NCBI GenBank assembly: GCA_007376425.1
Contig: VMGG01000004.1
Span: forward strand, 1-55,441
Source: Parcubacteria group bacterium Gr01-1014_2
GTDB taxonomy: Bacteria > Patescibacteriota > Minisyncoccia > 2-02-FULL-40-12
DNA length: 55,441 nucleotides
Reading direction: 5' to 3'
The notes under the pieces are model-generated. The model was not told the DNA's origin. It saw only the letters and a list, made by a program, of their open reading frames with translations, and searched no databases. A program made the translations under genes and the position numbers. This document shows, piece after piece, positions 8,162 through 45,456 of this stretch (position 1 is the stretch's first letter; each line of letters begins with the position of its first letter).

Positions 8162-8351
8162 CGATTATATAATTTTTCCTTCAGCGCGGTCGCTCCTTGC
8201 AATCGGAATAATTTCGGCGGTTTTAGCCCCTCTGGTCGGGATTATTTTGGGGTTTTACTTTTTAAGAAGGCCGCAGTTAGTTAAAGAAGGTAAGGGAATT
8301 CTTTTGGTCGCTTTAGTCTGGTTAAGTATTGTTTTTATATTTGCTTTTTAA
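8142..8351 (+). CDS. possible small 2-TM membrane protein
   Basis: ORF only. Two hydrophobic segments. Overlaps the lon end and the permease start. Confidence 0.25.
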   Translation: MPAIMPNDYIIFPSARSLLAIGIISAVLAPLVGIILGFYFLRRPQLVKEGKGILLVALVWLSIVFIFAF

Positions 8352-9486
8352 TCCCGAGAGAAGAATTTTTCTATACGCAGTTTCGATTTTAGTCGGAACT
8401 ATAGTTGGGGTTGGTATTTTTGGAATTCCTTTTTCTTTTGCCAAGGCCGGGTTTTTATCCGGTATTTTGTTTTTGGTTTTTGTCGGTTTTTTGAGTTTGG
8501 CGGTAAATTTGATTTTTGGAGAAGTGGTCTTGAGAACTAAAGAAATTCATCAGTTCACTGGCTACGCAAAAATATATCTTGGTAAAGGGGCTAAGATCCT
8601 GGCTTCGTTTGCTTGGTTTTTAAGCATCTATGGCGCCCTGCTCGCCTATATAATCATCAGTGGAAATTTCCTTTTCAATATTTTTATTTCCCAGTTTTAT
8701 GAGAACCCTCTCATTTACAGTATTTGGTTCTTTATTTTTGTTTCTTTGGCAGTTTTGGCCGGATTAAAGACAATAGTCCGCTTCGAACTTTTTATGGTTT
8801 TCTTTTTTATATTAGTCGTGTTTTTAGTTTTTATTTTAGGGATTCCCAAAATCGAACTTCAAAATCTGACTACGCTATTTAATCAGGAATTCTGGTTTTT
8901 GCCTTACGGCATTCTGCTTTTTGCTTACGCCGGTTTTTCGGCTATTCCGATCCAAAGAGAAGTGTTGAAAAGCAAAACTGGAGTTTTGAAAAAAGCAATT
9001 TTATGGGGCAGCCTGATTCCGGCCGTCCTTTACTTAATTTTTACTATTTCAATAGTCGGAATTTCAGGTGAAGCAACTTCGCCTGATGTGGTCAGCGGCC
9101 TGACTGATTTTTTTGATTATCGGATTATTTTTCTTGTTTCTATTTTCGGCATCTTGGCGATAACCACTTCTTTTTTGGCTTTAGCCTTTGCTTTAGTTGA
9201 AACTTTTAGGCTTGATTACGGATTTAAACGATTCAACGCTTGGGCTCTAACTTGTTTTATTCCTTTCTTTTTATTTTTGTTCGGGGTCAGAAATTTTATT
9301 GAAGTAATTTCTCTGGCTGGCGCTTTAGCCATTGGAGTCGAAGGTGTAATTTTAGTGGCGATGTATAAAAAAGCCAAAAAATTAGGGAATCGGGAACCAG
9401 AGTATTCTTTAAATTTTCATCCCTGGCTTTTAAATATGATAATGATTCTATTCGCTATCGGAGCTGTATACGCTATATTATTTTGA
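8329..9486 (+). CDS. amino acid permease (Trp/Tyr-permease-like)
   Basis: About 11 TM. Has the VGTIVGVGIFGIPFSFAKAG motif. TTG start is uncertain. Confidence 0.6.
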   Translation: MFLYLLFNPERRIFLYAVSILVGTIVGVGIFGIPFSFAKAGFLSGILFLVFVGFLSLAVNLIFGEVVLRTKEIHQFTGYAKIYLGKGAKILASFAWFLSIYGALLAYIIISGNFLFNIFISQFYENPLIYSIWFFIFVSLAVLAGLKTIVRFELFMVFFFILVVFLVFILGIPKIELQNLTTLFNQEFWFLPYGILLFAYAGFSAIPIQREVLKSKTGVLKKAILWGSLIPAVLYLIFTISIVGISGEATSPDVVSGLTDFFDYRIIFLVSIFGILAITTSFLALAFALVETFRLDYGFKRFNAWALTCFIPFFLFLFGVRNFIEVISLAGALAIGVEGVILVAMYKKAKKLGNREPEYSLNFHPWLLNMIMILFAIGAVYAILF

Positions 9487-9491
9487 AGTGT

Positions 9492-9516
9492 AAAAAGCGC
9501 CCTCAGAGCGCTTTTT
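9492..9516 (+). terminator. Rho-independent terminator
   Basis: aaaaagcgc-cctcaga-gcgcttttt. Confidence 0.8.
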
Positions 9517-9538
9517 ACAATGAGTAGAAAGGCTTGCT

Positions 9539-9721
9539 CGAAAAGCCTCTCGGGTACAGCCATTTCGGAAACACTCGGCCCCGTACCACTAAAATAAATT
9601 AGTTTATTTTCTGTTTATCAGAATAAACCCTCGTTCCTCATTCGCCTCGCTACAAAGAACATCTCCTCTTAACGGCTCGGCTCATGAGGTTCCTCAATGG
9701 CTATACCCTGCGGGCTTTTCG
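9539..9721 (+). mobile_element. MITE-like repeat family A, copy A1
   Basis: About 183 bp. Terminal inverted repeats (TIRs) are cgaaaagcctctcgggtacagccat and atggctataccctgcgggcttttcg. Core is ctgtttatcagaataaaccctcg...ttcgcctcgcta...acggctcggctc. Confidence 0.75.
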
Positions 9722-9820
9722 TTTAAAAATTGATACGCCCTCGCCGCTTTCCATAGCCACAAACTCGCAAAAGTTCAGAAACTGATACAGCCAAGCTGGT
9801 TTCTGTTTTCGTTTGATTTC

Positions 9821-9849
9821 TTGGCATTTTTTTGTTGTATTGCTATTAT
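9821..9849 (+). promoter_or_regulatory. sigma70-like promoter of the MOSC cassette
   Basis: TTGGCA, 17-nt spacer, TATTAT, with TGC immediately upstream (extended -10 like). Confidence 0.5.
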
Positions 9850-9904
9850 GTAGATTGTTCCAAAAATCGTTCCAAGATAACTCACGATTATAGGAGGACC
9901 AGAA

Positions 9905-10522
9905 ATGACAAGGTTAGCCTTCGAACTGAAAGGACGAGTCGAAGCTGTCCTTGTGGCGGCTAACTTCGGCTCAATTCTCTCGACGTCAGTCCCGAAAATT
10001 CAGCTCATTCGCGGACACGGCGTCAGGGGCGACAACCACGCTGGCGTACGGCTTGCGGATGTCCGAGAGAGGGAGTTTCTCTCTTTCGAATTTTCTAAGG
10101 GCGTCGAGATTGCCAACCATCGAGAGTTTTCCGCCGTCTCCGCCGAGGAGCTTGCGGAAGTCGCGCAAGCGATGAATCTCTCGAAGCCAGTTCCGCACGG
10201 CTGTCTCGGCGAGAATCTGGTGTTGAGCGGCATTCCGCGACTTACCGAGCTTCCCGCCGGAACGATGTTGTTCTTTCGAAAAGACGAGAAGCGAATCAGG
10301 ACAGCCGTGTTGATGGTGTGGGCGGAAAACACGCCGTGTCAGGGACCGGGGGAAGCGATCCAAGAGAAGTTTCCGGAAATTCCCAGACTCGCGCTTCTCT
10401 TCCCGAAGTCGGCTATCGGCAAGCGCGGAATTGTCGGGAGCATTTACGCTTCCGGCAATATCCATGCGGGCGACACGGTCGTCGCAAAGGTTCCTCGTCA
10501 GCGAATCTACAATCCCGAATAG
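9905..10522 (+). CDS. MOSC-domain protein (YiiM-like)
   Basis: Contains GHGVRGDNHAG, LGENLVLSG and GIVGSIYASGNIHAGD. SD AGGAGG lies 7 nt upstream. Visibly GC-rich relative to flanks. Confidence 0.75.
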   Translation: MTRLAFELKGRVEAVLVAANFGSILSTSVPKIQLIRGHGVRGDNHAGVRLADVREREFLSFEFSKGVEIANHREFSAVSAEELAEVAQAMNLSKPVPHGCLGENLVLSGIPRLTELPAGTMLFFRKDEKRIRTAVLMVWAENTPCQGPGEAIQEKFPEIPRLALLFPKSAIGKRGIVGSIYASGNIHAGDTVVAKVPRQRIYNPE

Positions 10523-10535
10523 GGATTGCTCGATA

Positions 10536-10571
10536 GGTGGTGGTGCGACACGCTCGTGCCACCCCTTTTTT
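10536..10571 (+). terminator. GC-rich hairpin plus T-run after the MOSC gene
   Basis: ggtggtggtgcgacacgctcgtgccacc followed by ccttttttatt. Confidence 0.6.
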
Positions 10572-10622
10572 ATTGAAAGAACTTTTTATCATCTATTCAC
10601 TATAAAATTAAACAGTTTCCAG

Positions 10623-10872
10623 AGCGAAAAGCTCGAAGGTGTATGCCTCTGAATTTTTAAATAGGGCCCGTTGGGCAATGCCTTCTCAGGAACATCCGGA
10701 GCCGAGCCGTTATAAGGAGAGGTTTTTTGTAGCGAGGCGATGGATGAGCGAGCGGTTTATTCTGATAAACAGAAAATGATAGAATTATTAAAACTGTATG
10801 AGGCCGAGCGTTTCCTGAAAGGCGTTGCCCAATAAAGGGCCCGAAGACCTACACCCGAGGATAGCTTTTCGC
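10623..10872 (-). mobile_element. family A copy A2 (variant ends, inverted relative to A1)
   Basis: Core is aggaacatccggagccgagccgt...gtagcgaggcgatggatgagcgag...tattctgataaacag...gaggccgagcgtttcc. Outer TIRs are agcgaaaagct.../...agcttttcgct. Confidence 0.7.
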
Positions 10873-10930
10873 TATTAAATCTTAGAAGCCTGAAATTGGG
10901 ATTAATTTATTTCTTATAGATTTAAAACCG

Positions 10931-10939
10931 TGCTATAAT
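10931..10939 (+). promoter_or_regulatory. extended -10 (TGCTATAAT)
   Basis: tgctataat lies 22 nt upstream of the ATG at 10962. Confidence 0.5.
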
Positions 10940-10961
10940 ACTTGGTAGTTAAAAAGTTCAA

Positions 10962-12275
10962 ATGAATATAAAAAAATCAGTATTTTTATTTTTGATTTTT
11001 TCTATTTTTTCATTTTTGACTTTCAATTTTTCCGGAGCTGATGTTCAGCAGGAAATTTCTGAAAGGGAGGAGCAGATTCAAGAATTGGAAAAACAGAAAG
11101 AAGAATTTCAAAAGCAGATTACTGAAAGACAAGGCCAGGCGAGAACCATGGAAGGGGAAATTTTTATTTTAGATACCCAAATTAAAAAGCTGCAGCTTGA
11201 AATAAGAACCCTTGATTTGGCGATTCAGCAGACTGGTTTGGAAATTGACGAAACAATTAAAAGCATTGAGGCGGCGCTTACTAAAATTGAAAAAATAAAA
11301 CAGAGCTTGGGCCAGTTTATCAGGCTACTTGATCAAAGCGATCGGGAAACACTGGTTGAGATTTTGTTTAAGAATCGCGACCTTTCGGATTTCTTCGGTA
11401 ATCTTGAAAGCATCCGCACTTCTCAAGAAAAAGCCCAGGTGACGATTAAAGACTTGAAGCAGTTAAAAATTGAACTTGAAGCAGAGCAGGAAAAACTGGA
11501 GATAAGAAAAACAGAGCAAGTTGGTTTGAGAAGTGTTCAGCAAATTCAGAAGCTTGAGGTTGATTCAAAGAAAAAGGAGAAAAATGATATTCTCAAAGTA
11601 ACTAAAGGCGAAGAGAAAAAATTCCAGGATTTGGTAAAAAAGACTGATCAAGACATAGAAAGAATAAGGGGCCAGGTGCGATTCTTGCTGGAACAGGGGA
11701 TTACTCTTGAAGAAGCTTTAAAATACGGCCAGCTGGCGGCTCAAAGAGTGGGCATTAGGCCGGCCTTTTTATTGGCGATTTTAGATGTTGAGTCAGGACT
11801 TGGAAGGAATGTTGGAACCGGGAATTGGTTGGACGATATGTATAATTGTTATCGGCGGCTTGGCAAGCTGACTAGAGCTGAAACAGAAAAAAACGCTTTT
11901 TTTGCGATAATCGGGAAGCTTGGCTTGGACGCTAATTCAGTCAGAGTTTCAAGAGCGCCAAGCTATGGCTGTGGTGGAGCGCTTGGCCCGGCTCAATTCA
12001 TTCCTTCAACCTGGCTTTTATATGAGACTCAAGTCGCCGCCTTGACTGGCCACGGCCTGCCTAATCCGTGGAGTATTGAAGATGCTTTTATGGCGGCGGC
12101 AATATACCTGGCTAATGCCGGTGCTTCCAATAAAACTCAAACCGCAGAAATCAGGGCAGCCAATGCTTATTTGAGCGGGAAAGCAAATTGCCGTCAGAGT
12201 ATTTGCCGCTATTATTCAAATTTGGTCTTACAAAAAGCGGCGGAAATAGAAAAAGATCTGCCTCGCACCTTTTAA
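10962..12275 (+). CDS. secreted coiled-coil protein with C-terminal lytic transglycosylase (SLT/MltB-like) domain
   Basis: Signal/TM, long heptad region, then LAILDVESGLGRN and GALGPAQFIPSTW. Confidence 0.6.
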   Translation: MNIKKSVFLFLIFSIFSFLTFNFSGADVQQEISEREEQIQELEKQKEEFQKQITERQGQARTMEGEIFILDTQIKKLQLEIRTLDLAIQQTGLEIDETIKSIEAALTKIEKIKQSLGQFIRLLDQSDRETLVEILFKNRDLSDFFGNLESIRTSQEKAQVTIKDLKQLKIELEAEQEKLEIRKTEQVGLRSVQQIQKLEVDSKKKEKNDILKVTKGEEKKFQDLVKKTDQDIERIRGQVRFLLEQGITLEEALKYGQLAAQRVGIRPAFLLAILDVESGLGRNVGTGNWLDDMYNCYRRLGKLTRAETEKNAFFAIIGKLGLDANSVRVSRAPSYGCGGALGPAQFIPSTWLLYETQVAALTGHGLPNPWSIEDAFMAAAIYLANAGASNKTQTAEIRAANAYLSGKANCRQSICRYYSNLVLQKAAEIEKDLPRTF

Positions 12276-24270: not shown

Positions 24271-24418
24271 GGCATATCAATTTCTTCGTTTGGGAGCCCT
24301 TCTTGGAAATGGCACGCAATTTTACTCGAATTGCCGCTAGCTATGGGCGTGTCTACCCCTTTATCCCCTAGCTTGTTACCGGCAATTCTTCGTAAAAGTA
24401 TCGGCCATTTCCTAAGAA
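24271..24418 (+). mobile_element. MITE-like repeat family B, copy B1 (right end replaced by A3)
   Basis: atcaatttcttcgtttgg...gaattgccgctagctatggg...ccctagcttgttaccggcaattc... Confidence 0.65.
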
Positions 24419-25962: not shown

Positions 25963-27167
25963 TGCGTTATAAAGCTCTAATACCAGCTATTTTAATTTCC
26001 TTAATTATCGGTTTTTTTGGCGGAGTAGAATTCCAGAAATTCCAGGAGCCAAGCCGGGGATTAAGAGAATTAATCAACCGCGATTTAGGACAACCCGAGG
26101 CGGTTGACTTCAGCTTATTTTGGGATGTTTGGAATCTGGTTCATCAAAGATATGTCGGCCGTTCTGAATTGAATACCCAAGACATGGTTTTGGGGGCGAT
26201 TAAAGGAATGGTTGAAAGCATCGGTGATCCTTTTACTGTATTTTTAAAGGCTGAAGAAAGTAAAAGACTGCAGGAAGACATAAGCGGAGAGTTTGCCGGT
26301 GTCGGGATAGAAATAGGGTTAAGGAAGGGGACTTTAACGGTTATTTCGCCGCTAGATGATACGCCGGCGTCCCGAGCCGGAATCATTGCCGGGGATAAGA
26401 TTTTAAGCATTGACAGCCAGTCAACCGCCGAAATTACCATCGAGGAAGCAGTTTCAAAGATAAGGGGCCGTCGAGGAACTAAAGTTGTTTTGACTATTTC
26501 AAGAAATAAAGACGGGGAAGATGAAACAAAAGATTTTGAATTAGTCAGAGACAAGATAAAAGTCCCGACGGTTAAATGGACCAAGATTGAACCGGATATC
26601 GGTCATATTAGACTTTTTAGTTTTAACCAAATAGCTAAAAATGAATTTGATAAGGCTCTTGATGAATTAAAAAAGCAGGGCGCCAGCAAGAAATTAATTT
26701 TGGATTTAAGAAACAATCCGGGCGGGCTTTTGGATTTAGCCATAGATATCTCAAGCTACTTTTTAGAGCCGGGTTACGTAGTGGTGATTGAAGACTTTGG
26801 CGGTGGTTTAAGAGAAGAACTAAAATCCAAGCCTAATGGCTTTTTAAAAGACGCAAAAGTCGTTATTTTAATCAATAAAGGTTCGGCTTCGGCTTCGGAA
26901 ATCGTGGCTGGCGCCTTGCACGATAACCTTGGCGTCAAACTAATAGGGGAGACGACGTTCGGGAAAGGCTCGGTTCAGCAGGTTGAACAATTGAGGCTTA
27001 AGACGGCTTTGAAAATAACCGTGGCCAAATGGTTGACACCGAAAGGGCGTTCCATTAGCGATCAAGGAATAGAGCCGGATATTAAAATTGAAAGGACCGA
27101 AGAGGATGTTAAAAACGACCGCGACCCGCAGCTGGAGAAGGCGATTGAAGTGATAAAAGAACTGTAG
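25959..27167 (+). CDS. ctpA: carboxy-terminal processing protease (S41) with PDZ domain
   Basis: Contains GDKILSID, LDLRNNPGG, GSASASEIVAGAL and TFGKGSVQ. Confidence 0.85.
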   Translation: MMRYKALIPAILISLIIGFFGGVEFQKFQEPSRGLRELINRDLGQPEAVDFSLFWDVWNLVHQRYVGRSELNTQDMVLGAIKGMVESIGDPFTVFLKAEESKRLQEDISGEFAGVGIEIGLRKGTLTVISPLDDTPASRAGIIAGDKILSIDSQSTAEITIEEAVSKIRGRRGTKVVLTISRNKDGEDETKDFELVRDKIKVPTVKWTKIEPDIGHIRLFSFNQIAKNEFDKALDELKKQGASKKLILDLRNNPGGLLDLAIDISSYFLEPGYVVVIEDFGGGLREELKSKPNGFLKDAKVVILINKGSASASEIVAGALHDNLGVKLIGETTFGKGSVQQVEQLRLKTALKITVAKWLTPKGRSISDQGIEPDIKIERTEEDVKNDRDPQLEKAIEVIKEL

Positions 27168-27179
27168 AAAGCCTTAATC

Positions 27180-27356
27180 GGCAATACCCAATTTCTTCTA
27201 GTGAGCCTCTTCTTGGAAATGGCGCGGTACTTTGCTTGAATTGCCGACAACTAGGGCGTGTCTACCCCTTTATCCCCTAGCTTGTTACCGGCAATTCTTC
27301 GCAAAGATACCGGCCATTTCACAAGACACGCCTCAAATCAGAAATTGGGCATTACC
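27180..27356 (+). mobile_element. family B copy B2 (full length)
   Basis: TIRs are ggcaatacccaatttct and agaaattgggcattacc. Internal hairpin is gaattgccg...ctaggg/ccctag...cggcaattc. Confidence 0.7.
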
Positions 27357-27407
27357 TCATGGCTTTCTACAATTACCTCACGCTTTTCGCTTACTTTATT
27401 ACAAAAG

Positions 27408-27431
27408 TTCAGAAATCGGCTATACCCCTCG
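27408..27431 (+). repeat. solo family-A-end-like module
   Basis: ttcagaaatcggctatacccctcg. Compare the A end ttccgaaatggctgtacccgagagg. Confidence 0.55.
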
Positions 27432-27480
27432 TTTTCTTTTCCCGAATCCGCTCACAAAACATTCCCGCATTGCTTACTTC

Positions 27481-27526
27481 AAAAAGAAAAAGGCCACCGC
27501 AGCTTACGCTTTGGCGGCCTGGTGGC
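27481..27526 (-). terminator. hairpin plus T-run (minus-strand reading) after the small membrane gene
   Basis: Plus strand reads aaaaagaaaaa-ggccaccgc...gcggcctggtggc. Confidence 0.55.
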
Positions 27527-27712
27527 TTTGGTCTTTTCTGACGATTCGATTTCATCAACCGTTCAAGGAACAACATACATCCTCCTCTATATACAGGCTA
27601 GCATTTTGATGAATTCCGACGCAAGGTCGGAGTTCCAACTGATAACGTTGAGTTCCGGTGAGGGTCATTAATTGGCATAAGTATCAAAGACGGGATTTTG
27701 ACTCAACGTCTC

Positions 27713-27916
27713 TTAAGAGTCGTAAGAAGCGGACTCTCTCCAAAGCCAGACGATCAAACCGAGGCCGCAGAGAATCACAAACAGAAGTGCCCACGCTGGT
27801 AAATTTTCTACCAAGAACCAGATGTAACTTGTGACATCCAGCTTCAGGTAAAGGTAAATTATCAGCAGACTCATTGTGACGGCAACGCCAAGAGGCAGAA
27901 ATTTCGCTGTTCTCAT
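27713..27916 (-). CDS. small 2-TM membrane protein (GC-rich cassette)
   Basis: 67 aa. The SD GAGGAGGA lies 4 nt upstream of the ATG. Confidence 0.45.
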   Translation of the reverse strand: MRTAKFLPLGVAVTMSLLIIYLYLKLDVTSYIWFLVENLPAWALLFVILCGLGLIVWLWRESASYDS

Positions 27917-28113
27917 TTGCTCCTCCTCTATATGCTAAATTACCCGCGCAATTAGTTGAAGCATGGCTTTCTTCCTTGAAAAGGTCTATAAATTTTGTAT
28001 CATAAAGTTAAGTAGCAATCAAATGCGAAAAGCGCGAGGTGTAGCCATTGTTTGTAAAAACATTAAAAAACCAGCTTGGCGTATCTGATCTTTGAACTTT
28101 TGTAAGTTTGTAG

Positions 28114-28137
28114 CGAGGGGTATAGCCGATTTCTGAA
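28114..28137 (-). repeat. solo family-A-end-like module, inverted copy
   Basis: cgaggggtatagccgatttctgaa is the reverse complement of 27408-27431. Confidence 0.6.
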
Positions 28138-28166
28138 CTACCAAGGGAGCAGAAACAAATAACCGA

Positions 28167-28229
28167 AAGAGAGTGAAAATTTGCCGATGACAAATAGGGT
28201 GGAGGGTGCCTTATTTGTCGGCAAATTTT
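28167..28229. repeat. family B core hairpin only (B5)
   Basis: aaaatttgccgatgacaaata-gggtggagggtgcc-ttatttgtcggcaaatttt. Supplies the first 8 codons of rplI. Confidence 0.7.
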
Positions 28230-28622
28230 AATGAGGTCAAGTTCTTACTTGCCTATGCCAGGAATTTTTTGGTGCCAAAGAAGTTGGCGATTCTGGCGAC
28301 CGCTGAAAATTTAAAAGAGATAGATGAATTAAAAAAGAAAAAGGCTTTGACTATTCAAGAGGAGCTTCAGAAAATGAAAGAAGTAGCCGATAGATTAAAA
28401 GATTACAGGTTGATTATTGAAACTAAAGCCGACGAAAAAGGAAATTTATACGCGGCAATAATGCCGAAAAAAATAGGCGAAGCTTTGAGGGAGCGGGGGA
28501 TAGAGGTTAATCCTGACTACCTTGAAATTTTCAATATAATTAAAAAGGTTGGGGTTCACCAAGCTTTATTTAAATATTATGACATTGAGGCTAAATTTGA
28601 AGTAGAGACAGTTCGGGTCTAA
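28206..28622 (+). CDS. rplI: 50S ribosomal protein L9 with a replaced or truncated N-terminus
   Basis: L9 homology starts at ...[29 protein letters not shown]. The GTG start and codons 1-8 lie in the B5 hairpin. Confidence 0.65.
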
Positions 28623-43603: not shown

Positions 43604-43861
43604 CGAAAAGCCCGCAGGGCACAGCCATTAGTTTCACTCCGGCCGCAGGGGTATAATCAATTTCTGAGCCTGGGGAGTCGTCTTAGAAAATAGCCGGTAT
43701 CTTTATGAAGAATTGCCGATGACAAATCTATGGTGGAGGTACCCTGATTTGTCGGCAATTCGAATAAAGTGCCGCGCTATTTTCAAGAAGGGGCACCAAA
43801 CGAAGAAATTGATTGTACCCCGAGAGACGGTTCCGAGATGGCTGTGCCCGAGAGGCTTTTC
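43604..43861 (-). mobile_element. family A ends only (A7 shell) enclosing a family B copy
   Basis: Left end is cgaaaagcccgcagggcacagccatt. Right end is gatggctgtgcccgagaggcttttc. The interior is B4. Confidence 0.6.
43649..43820 (-). mobile_element. family B copy B4 (inverted; type-2 inner hairpin)
   Basis: The reverse complement of its right flank matches the B3 left flank. Core is gaattgccgatgacaaatc...gatttgtcggcaattc. Confidence 0.7.
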
Positions 43862-45265: not shown

Positions 45266-45278
45266 AAACCCTGAATCG

Positions 45279-45456
45279 GGTGTAATCAATTTCTTCGTTT
45301 GGTGCCCCTTCTTGAAAATAGCACGTCACTTTGCTCGAATTGCCGATAACTAGGGCGTGTCTACCCCTTTATCCCCTAGCTTATAAGCGGCAATTCTTCG
45401 CAAAGATACCGGCTATTTTCTAAGACGACTCCCCACGCTCAGAAATTGATTACACC
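45279..45456 (+). mobile_element. family B copy B3 (full length)
   Basis: TIRs are ggtgtaatcaatttct and agaaattgattacacc. Has the type-1 inner hairpin. Confidence 0.75.

Follow-up and report, generated by a model that had tools for sequence, protein, structure and literature searches.

The subject here is a 1,475-nucleotide (nt) interval between two host genes, one for an amino-acid permease and the other for a coiled-coil/lytic transglycosylase (SLT), in the genome of Parcubacteria group bacterium Gr01-1014_2, together with the gene for a MOSC-domain protein that sits within it. The interval belongs to a stretch of 55,441 nt (contig VMGG01000004.1, positions 1 to 55,441, assembly GCA_007376425.1), which was analysed as a whole and is referred to below as the window. 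From the permease stop codon to the SLT start codon there is a hairpin, an element (A1) of a repeat family designated A, two small modules, a transcription unit comprising promoter, Shine-Dalgarno (SD) sequence, MOSC open reading frame (ORF) and terminator, a second family A element (A2), and then the promoter for the SLT gene (Table 1). The unit stands out by its content of guanine plus cytosine (GC), which peaks at 58% in 10001-10400 and is 56.5% for the ORF vs 39.9% for the rest of the window. An earlier, sequence-only reading had described a GC-rich unit with its own promoter, strong SD, MOSC ORF and terminator, placed between the permease gene end and the SLT gene promoter and bracketed by family A elements in opposite orientation. 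All of these features have been located, the opposite orientation being evident both from inverted repeat I9 and from nhmmer matches on opposite strands (9540-9725 for A1, and the core of A2), and the description of a foreign, self-contained cassette flanked by inverted non-autonomous repeats stands. An independent Logan contig (986 nt, from the assembly of another run) is 100% identical to 9694-10679 and ends within both repeats. As it crosses both inner junctions these are real, and an assembly chimera is ruled out.

Table 1. Features of the permease-SLT interval and its flanking genes (window coordinates)
Feature	Position	Strand	Basis or remark
Amino-acid permease gene (Trp_Tyr_perm family), host	8329-9486	+	Pfam PF03222, E=1e-32; left anchor of slot
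Hairpin AAAAAGCGC-N7-GCGCTTTTT just past permease stop, probable bidirectional terminator	9491-9519	+	read from sequence
Family A element A1, short subfamily	9539-9722	-	inverted repeat, blastn, nhmmer
28-nt repeated module AAATTGATACGCCCTCGCCGCTTTCCAT, resembles outer end of long A elements	9727-9754	+	
Module C, contains 35-mer 9768-9802; hairpin CAGAAAC...GTTTCTG then T-rich run	9741-9809	+	
Transferable MOSC cassette, promoter to terminator	9798-10586	+	nucleotide homology with other genomes
Sigma-70-type promoter TTGGCA-17-TATTAT, TG-extended -10	9821-9849	+	10/12 consensus matches
Shine-Dalgarno AGGAGG	9892-9897	+	7 nt before ATG at 9905
YuaD-like stand-alone MOSC-domain protein, 205 amino acids	9905-10522	+	PF03473, 1ORU
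Cassette intrinsic terminator: 10-bp stem (hairpin 10539-10563) plus T run	10539-10573	+	
Family A element A2, long subfamily: core 10656-10843, extended to the long form by an additional outer stem	10623-10872	+	
SLT gene promoter, extended -10 TGcTATAAT	10931-10939	+	sequence
Coiled-coil/lytic transglycosylase (SLT_2) gene, host	10962-12275	+	PF13406, E=1.7e-11; right anchor

The MOSC gene is present in a single copy in its own genome and absent from all 60 relatives searched (1 of the same genus, 6 of the same family and 53 of the same order). Homologues, 170 of them, are mostly from Patescibacteria, with Spechtbacteria, Kaiserbacteria, Parcubacteria, Paceibacterota, Moraniibacteriota and Saccharibacteria among the named hosts, and identity declines smoothly from 91% to 57%. 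The 21 loci with close relatives of the gene that were examined represent at least eight distinct genomic contexts, and the neighbours are diverse: hypothetical genes beside ribosomal protein L20, DUF347 with glutaredoxin, a PaaX-like gene, IF-2, a small helix-turn-helix (HTH) protein, a large serine recombinase and then two unknown genes, or an HTH protein with a serine hydrolase. On those contigs L20, S20, RuvA, MurE and IF-2 are just 33-47% identical to the orthologues of the present host, as against 83-91% for the MOSC protein. The gene stays at 52-56% GC in hosts whose own GC is 37-47%. On these comparative sequence grounds, i.e. similarity far above that of core proteins, patchy distribution and atypical GC, the MOSC gene is a horizontal import. 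A different composition is seen on one 46-kb contig (L073, JGI 3300025323) of 57% GC, whose MurE groups with Patescibacteria/Paceibacterota proteins; there the gene is 91% identical and, at 55% GC, host-like, and the lineage concerned may be one in which it is native. (On this contig the gene follows the HTH regulator and serine hydrolase genes in an operon-like arrangement.) The sequence-only reading had held that the same gene, if found at this place in distant relatives without flanking repeats and with host-like composition, would argue against its proposal. This holds in part: the gene does occur without the repeats in distant relatives, at L073 with host-like composition as well, but its places there are not the permease-SLT gap.

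The nucleotide alignments also give the boundaries of what is shared. By blastn the cassette is 83-91% identical to L001-L006, L062-L067 and L073-L079. On the left, homology ends at 9798/9799 in four contexts (L062-L065, L066, L067 and L078/L079) and later, at 9861-9903, elsewhere; at L073, the sole locus with the gene in an operon, it begins only at the SD sequence, 9892. On the right, the ends are all at 10569-10586. The limits of homology thereby lie 75 nt and 37 nt inside the inner edges of A1 and A2, respectively. Compared with one another, the foreign loci have ragged limits of homology, 13-268 nt upstream and ~47-156 nt downstream with the terminator always included, and since these limits differ between contexts the unit is not a fixed-end element. 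The 21 foreign MOSC loci have no match to family A with the threshold relaxed to E<=10, and in the converse comparison 66 metagenome loci with family A yielded no MOSC gene. Neither att-like motifs nor flanking repeats were evident around the foreign cassettes, apart from an imperfect 16-nt direct repeat, AAACAGAAACTTGAAA / AAAGAAAAACTTGAAA. The latter (L078 4475-4490 and 5329-5344, and also in L062-L067) may be a recombination scar or may reflect chance in homologous flanks. At two loci, L003 and L004, the MOSC gene lies 1.7 kb downstream of a gene for a large serine recombinase. Other contigs share with the window's large serine recombinase region only 42-52-nt hairpin repeats, and the ORF upstream of the MOSC gene in L062 is not such a recombinase. 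These observations are suggestive, only, of large serine recombinase elements as plausible vehicles of the cassette between genomes.

The gene that is carried is a working one. The MOSC domain (PF03473) is its only Pfam match (residues 69-192, E=1.1e-15), and no NCBIfam model gives it a name. The sole solved relative by sequence is Bacillus subtilis YuaD (PDB 1ORU; E=3e-23, residues 18-194), with the cysteine motif ENTPC aligning with ENDPC. Having no extra N- or C-terminal domain, and retaining the invariant cysteine, it is of the YuaD-like stand-alone type. YuaD is a stand-alone MOSC protein whose function is uncharacterised and which lacks the C-terminal helical bundle of YiiM (PMC5818509); it is in the same length class as the window protein (195 vs 205 amino acids), and the cysteine motif is common to both. 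The ratio of nonsynonymous to synonymous substitution rates (dN/dS), 0.09-0.17 in comparisons with six homologues, indicates a working gene under purifying selection. By analogy with the MOSC proteins YiiM and YcbX, its enzymatic role is possibly the reduction of N-hydroxylated compounds. MoaC (PF01967), the one cofactor biosynthesis gene searched for, was not found in the assembly, which is 90% complete, and 11 of 14 control genomes were positive; dependence of the protein on home-made molybdenum cofactor is therefore doubtful. The expression signals have been retained along with the gene. The promoter region is conserved among other MOSC cassettes (alignment with L001 reveals an overlapping TTGACT/TATACT pair), as is AGGAGG, and the cassette terminator is conserved in every homologous locus, including that of the GC-rich host L073.

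The repeats have a quite different distribution. Family A elements are non-coding, ~185-250 nt, multi-copy, and have terminal inverted repeats (CGAAAAGCC.CTCGGGTA.AGCCATT and its complement). With 16 full-length and ~15 partial copies detected by nhmmer in the 545-kb genome, they are far above chance (some 10.6% of the bases in that assembly have a second copy elsewhere). The copies nearest to A2 are at C37 5719-5891 (92%) and C20 10718-10829 (94%) in the same genome. Family A is present in 7 genomes of the host family (its own and those of 6 of 7 relatives), at 2-16 or more copies in each, and, one 31-nt match excepted, is absent from the 53 other genomes of the order. With family A confined to the host family and the MOSC gene absent from the 60 relatives, it is the gene that is the newcomer, among resident repeats. 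For 31-32 nt at each end (9539-9570 and 9693-9723), A1 matches with 100% identity the ends of A' (C5 7002-7191 of the same genome), an element whose core is unrelated. The A' core is also present in the permease-SLT gap of G002, so these are swapped-core families sharing the same ends. No consistent target-site duplication is apparent across 17 aligned family A copies with their flanks. DDE_Tnp_1 (PF01609), rve (PF00665) and Y1_Tnp (PF01797), the three transposase families searched for, were not found in the 90%-complete assembly (control genomes were positive), and within the same three-family scope no transposase-bearing relative of family A was found. The lack of a Y1 transposase match in this assembly, together with the long terminal inverted repeats, disposes of an IS200/IS605 or REP-RAYT assignment. 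Integron attC sites were likewise considered and rejected on account of element length (185-250 nt), multi-branched fold and opposite orientations, and because the cassette brings a promoter of its own.

What is most distinctive about family A is its fold. For A1 the folding energy is -75.4 kcal/mol (z=-7.0) on the minus strand and -60 on the plus strand; the folding strand is minus at A1 and plus at A2. Comparative analysis involved 38 copies from 7 genomes and a structure of 37 pairs, with controls in which the pairing partner was slid or the sequences shuffled. Paired cells amounted to 87.2% vs 39-55% in the slid controls, cells with changes in both partners to 99 vs 17-30 (slid) and 33 (shuffled), with 11 pairs changed on both sides, and the covariation score was 0.214 vs 0.04-0.07 for the slid controls. 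In an internal stem (columns 44-58 with 85-99) 97% are paired, the variants including CAU/AUG, CGC/GCG, CGU/ACG and AUCC/GGAU. G-U pairs are common at three positions, and so the fold belongs to one strand. Rfam yielded no match at the gathering threshold or at E<=10 (the whole window gave one tRNA, and relaxed searching of 9400-11000 gave matches only at chance level), and a literature search for miniature inverted-repeat transposable elements (MITEs) in Patescibacteria found nothing relevant and no description of family A. The elements also have a polarity with respect to genes. On the folding strand, the distance to a gene is shorter from the 3′ end (median 45 nt in the host genome and 29 nt in metagenomes, the latter from 51 scorable copies) than from the 5′ end (152 and 143 nt). 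At the locus under consideration the 3′ end of the A1 folding strand faces the permease stop codon, 54 nt away, and that of A2 faces the SLT gene. A rule that family A is co-directional with its downstream gene was tried and dropped, as it accommodated 9 of 12 scorable copies in the host genome but only 17 of 51 from metagenomes; the asymmetry of distance alone survives. Conservation of the core between genera is 75-89%, where protein identity is 70-88%, and one copy is inside a glycosyltransferase ORF.

The site itself is one of several that have repeatedly taken up insertions. Permease orthologues are present in all 7 family relatives and the SLT gene is next in 6 of the 7; the SLT gene has orthologues in all 7 as well, 52-88% identical. 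(The hairpin just past the permease stop was not called by a consensus terminator scan because its T run sits within the stem. The extended -10 of the SLT gene was likewise not called by the consensus scan, and G001 has GTGGTATAAT at the same position.) What lies between the two genes differs from one relative to the next. In G004 there are 86 nt and nothing else; in the same-genus genome G001 there are 264 nt with a small ORF; cupredoxin-like ORFs are present in G005, G007 and G006, the last of which also has a cation exchanger and, directly after the permease stop, a fragment of an A-type end; and other palindromic repeats are present in G002. Three further gaps have similar histories. Between rpoC and ftsK there is an A copy in G005, and in G007 an A fragment and a different gene of 50-69% GC. 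Between comM and M23 there are repeats in G004 and G002 and a GC-rich gene in G007. The S21-yqeY spacer is 0-2 nt in G004 and G006, and is hairpin-rich in G001 and G007. These four gaps are recurrent insertion hot spots across genera. As most genes abut in these genomes, the existence of few tolerant gaps, which then collect both kinds of insertion, is an economical explanation. The 50-69% GC ORF in the rpoC-ftsK gap of G007 (contig C1, locus L082) encodes 196 amino acids, has its own upstream region and adjoins the A fragment. Elsewhere in the window, the gap between an S41 peptidase gene and rplI (27165-28252) is repeat-dense and has two small minus-strand ORFs with a strong SD (TATAGAGGAGGA), one of which encodes a small membrane protein; families B and C and a single A-type end lie on their flanks. 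Family B (~120 nt, ...GAATTGCCGA...ACCGGCAATTC...) is at 24296-24418, 27205-27327, 43650-43820 and 45278-45456 of the window. It often adjoins A copies, and is also present in the permease-SLT and comM-M23 gaps of G002.

Between A1 and the promoter are two modules with copies elsewhere. The 28-nt module AAATTGATACGCCCTCGCCGCTTTCCAT has 96% identical copies at C22 3467-3494, C16 9344-9368 and C35 614-638 in the same genome. For the other, module C, the sequence-only reading had an extra module that recurs inverted near 28056-28100. Recurrence is real: comparison of 9741-9809 with the reverse complement of ~28057-28130 gives a gapped local score of 67, where shuffled sequences give 19 +/- 3.5 (maximum 33). 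However, the copies are diverged, the module is longer than had been described, and the exact 35-mer at 9768-9802 has no second copy within 3 mismatches. Weaker copies are at 27402-27440, at C31 ~90-137 and at C37 5333-5364, positioned upstream of other small GC-rich genes, and the hairpin of module C, with the T-rich run after it, is probably an upstream insulating terminator. The left breakpoint at 9798/9799 falls between the loop and the 3′ arm of this hairpin. Foreign cassettes share this 3′ arm but have another 5′ arm and loop before it (AACAGAAAC TTGAAAAA GTTTCTGTT), and in the present genome the 5′ part of the hairpin belongs to the module that recurs upstream of other cassettes.

The explanation that we favour, and consider probable, is that an imported, self-expressed cassette occupies a permissive slot and is flanked there by lineage-specific, structured palindromic repeats that are outside the travelling unit. 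The cassette circulates among distantly related Patescibacteria, perhaps with large serine recombinase elements as its vehicle, and in this lineage landed in the permease-SLT gap, one of a few permissive slots and one that different genera have filled with different accessory genes or repeats. Entry may have been by two crossovers, with no dedicated enzyme, one at a short hairpin common to both sequences and the second a little beyond the terminator. The position of the left breakpoint, within the module C hairpin, is the reason for proposing recombination at short shared hairpin or terminator modules. Family A copies would, on their own account, settle beside gene ends and turn the 3′ end of the folding strand to whichever gene is closest. 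With A1 following the permease stop and A2 preceding the SLT promoter, such placement would be enough to make an inverted bracket. The foreign origin, limits and many contexts of the cassette, the fold of the repeats and their restriction to the host family, and the hot-spot behaviour of the gap are established; the order of these arrivals is one that we infer.

Several observations weigh against this explanation. In the host genome there are two further blocks with a cassette between family A elements, at C37 4490-5944 in the S21-yqeY gap and at C20 10714-11968 in the rpoC-ftsK gap, each with a TTGACA-17-TATAAT consensus promoter, one or more GC-rich orphan ORFs (for which Pfam has no matches) and terminators, in gaps that are short in relatives. 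The A elements in all three blocks have the same relative orientation, and G001, of the same genus, lacks both repeats and cassettes at all three. A rough estimate from copy counts is that chance would place A on both sides of only ~0.5 genes. The copies beside cassettes are among those most similar to each other (92-94%), hinting at a recent linked burst, and 7 of 16 copies are near GC-rich islands where 3.7 were expected for random placement in intergenic DNA, though at P ~0.06 this is marginal.

Such observations are pertinent to the composite transposon that the sequence-only reading had proposed, in which a transposase supplied in trans would act on the outermost ends and move the 1.33-kb block from A1 to A2. 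The outer ends of the block resemble each other in inverted orientation (CGAAAAGCCTCTCGGGTACAG vs GCGAAAAGCTATCCTCGGGTGTAG, not identical, ~75% by eye), the layout recurs at C37 (4514-5893) and C20 (10745-11954) with all three blocks absent from G001, and the identical 31-32-nt ends of A and A' suggest recognition by some machinery. Against this, the elements A1 and A2 are of different subfamilies and only 77% identical (over 172 nt by blastn); there is no abutting direct repeat at 9538/10873, the flanks being GTAGAAAGGCTTGCT to the left and TATTAAATCTTAGAA to the right, with the 5-mer TAGAA, 9-10 nt from each end, as the only word common to both; and none of the three transposase families searched for was found in the 90%-complete assembly. 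Homology of the cassette to other genomes stops within the block, and the block has been seen just once, with no second location in the host genome, the 21 MOSC loci or the 66 A-bearing metagenome loci. The permease-SLT gaps of relatives differ in content and none aligns as a precise empty site, and at two ‘empty’ sites G001 retains, without the core, end-like motifs of long A elements (GAAAAGCTT after rpoC, L080; CAAGCTTTCTATTGTATC before yqeY, L087), so that block edges are not clean insertion edges. These motifs are either deletion footprints or older mini-elements. Pairs of A elements, moreover, flank core genes (SecY in G004, EF-P in metagenome contig L090, and fmt-efp in the window), and one pair has nothing between its members: in the host's comM-M23 gap, a site that is empty in G001, G005 and G006, an A and an A' face outward (C5 6789-7191). 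In metagenome loci, outward- and inward-facing pairs are equally frequent, 3 vs 3. Transposition of the block as a composite is accordingly not supported and is considered quite unlikely.

That unoccupied outward-facing pair is more congenial to a reading in which such a pair, being a long palindrome and so fragile or recombinogenic, captures cassettes without transposing them. The three outward pairs of the host genome and two of three metagenome ones (L101 and L134) hold GC-rich cassettes, inward pairs hold core genes, and the left breakpoint falls in a hairpin module of which other cassettes in the same genome have copies upstream. But the orientation pattern follows from each A having its 3′ end towards the nearest host gene, the three blocks share no inner-junction sequence besides A, many GC-rich islands have no A nearby, the association being marginal as noted, and at permease-SLT the slots of G001, G005 and G007 have collected cassettes without A. 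This reading is considered unlikely, as is its bolder form, a speculation, that outward-facing pairs are the capture sites of a transposase-free acquisition system of this Patescibacteria family, in which foreign cassettes (the MOSC one, and those with orphan genes at C37 and C20) are installed, via recombination at short hairpin modules, between an A near a gene end and an A near a gene start. If it did hold, the A repeats would both insulate the newcomer and give portable homology for passing the cassette on, and family A would represent a hitherto undescribed class of mobile or recombinogenic elements in ultra-small bacteria, structured and strand-specific. A function selected by the host, with family A as insulator, terminator, RNA-stability or regulatory element (RNA or DNA) that isolates the newcomer's strong promoter from its neighbours, would account for the conserved one-strand fold with its compensatory changes and G-U pairs, for core conservation of the degree seen across genera, and for the consistent polarity towards gene ends. 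It fits poorly with the variation in copy number between sister genomes, from 2 to 16 or more, with positions that are mostly non-orthologous between genomes, with the copy within a glycosyltransferase ORF and with the lack of an Rfam family match, and we regard it as very improbable.

The wider interest of an imported cassette in a permissive slot is that Patescibacteria have tiny, gene-dense genomes with few classical mobile elements, and yet have GC-rich, self-expressed accessory genes. At least some such cassettes are true imports whose GC still resembles that of L073, the one host found to match in composition. A few intergenic slots collecting cassettes and palindromic repeats across genera explains repeat-bracketed genes without composite transposition. 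Family A, with a one-strand fold supported by covariation, merits study in its own right.

Several known systems offer parallels. Integron mobilization units consist of a gene cassette between two 288-bp MITEs, with a 5-bp duplication, and at the MOSC locus, too, two short non-autonomous inverted-repeat elements bracket a cargo; unlike there, the flanking copies are 77% identical, and there is no target duplication, no second location and no transposase among the three families searched for. Correia elements of Neisseria and Rickettsia palindromic elements are hairpin-forming repeats, and family A resembles them in being 150-250 nt, high-copy, mostly intergenic near gene ends, sometimes in ORFs, and lineage-restricted. 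It differs in being multi-branched, with strand-specific G-U pairs, compensatory changes in internal stems and ends that are common to different cores, and no TA duplication is seen. With regard to the cassette itself, phage morons are autonomous promoter-ORF-terminator units, and the MOSC cassette likewise has one accessory ORF, served by a promoter and terminator of its own, differs from its neighbours in composition, sits between resident transcription units and is found in many contexts, though here in a chromosomal gap between housekeeping genes and not in a recognisable prophage. The minimal mobile elements of Neisseria (Saunders and Snyder) reportedly comprise a slot between conserved genes which holds variable accessory genes or none. 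The MOSC slot is similarly variable or empty and has no mobility gene, with exchange presumed to be by recombination; it differs in having been compared between genera rather than strains and in also gathering palindromic repeats. In these respects the MOSC locus is a further example of a moron-like, or minimal-mobile-element-like, cassette in a variable slot.

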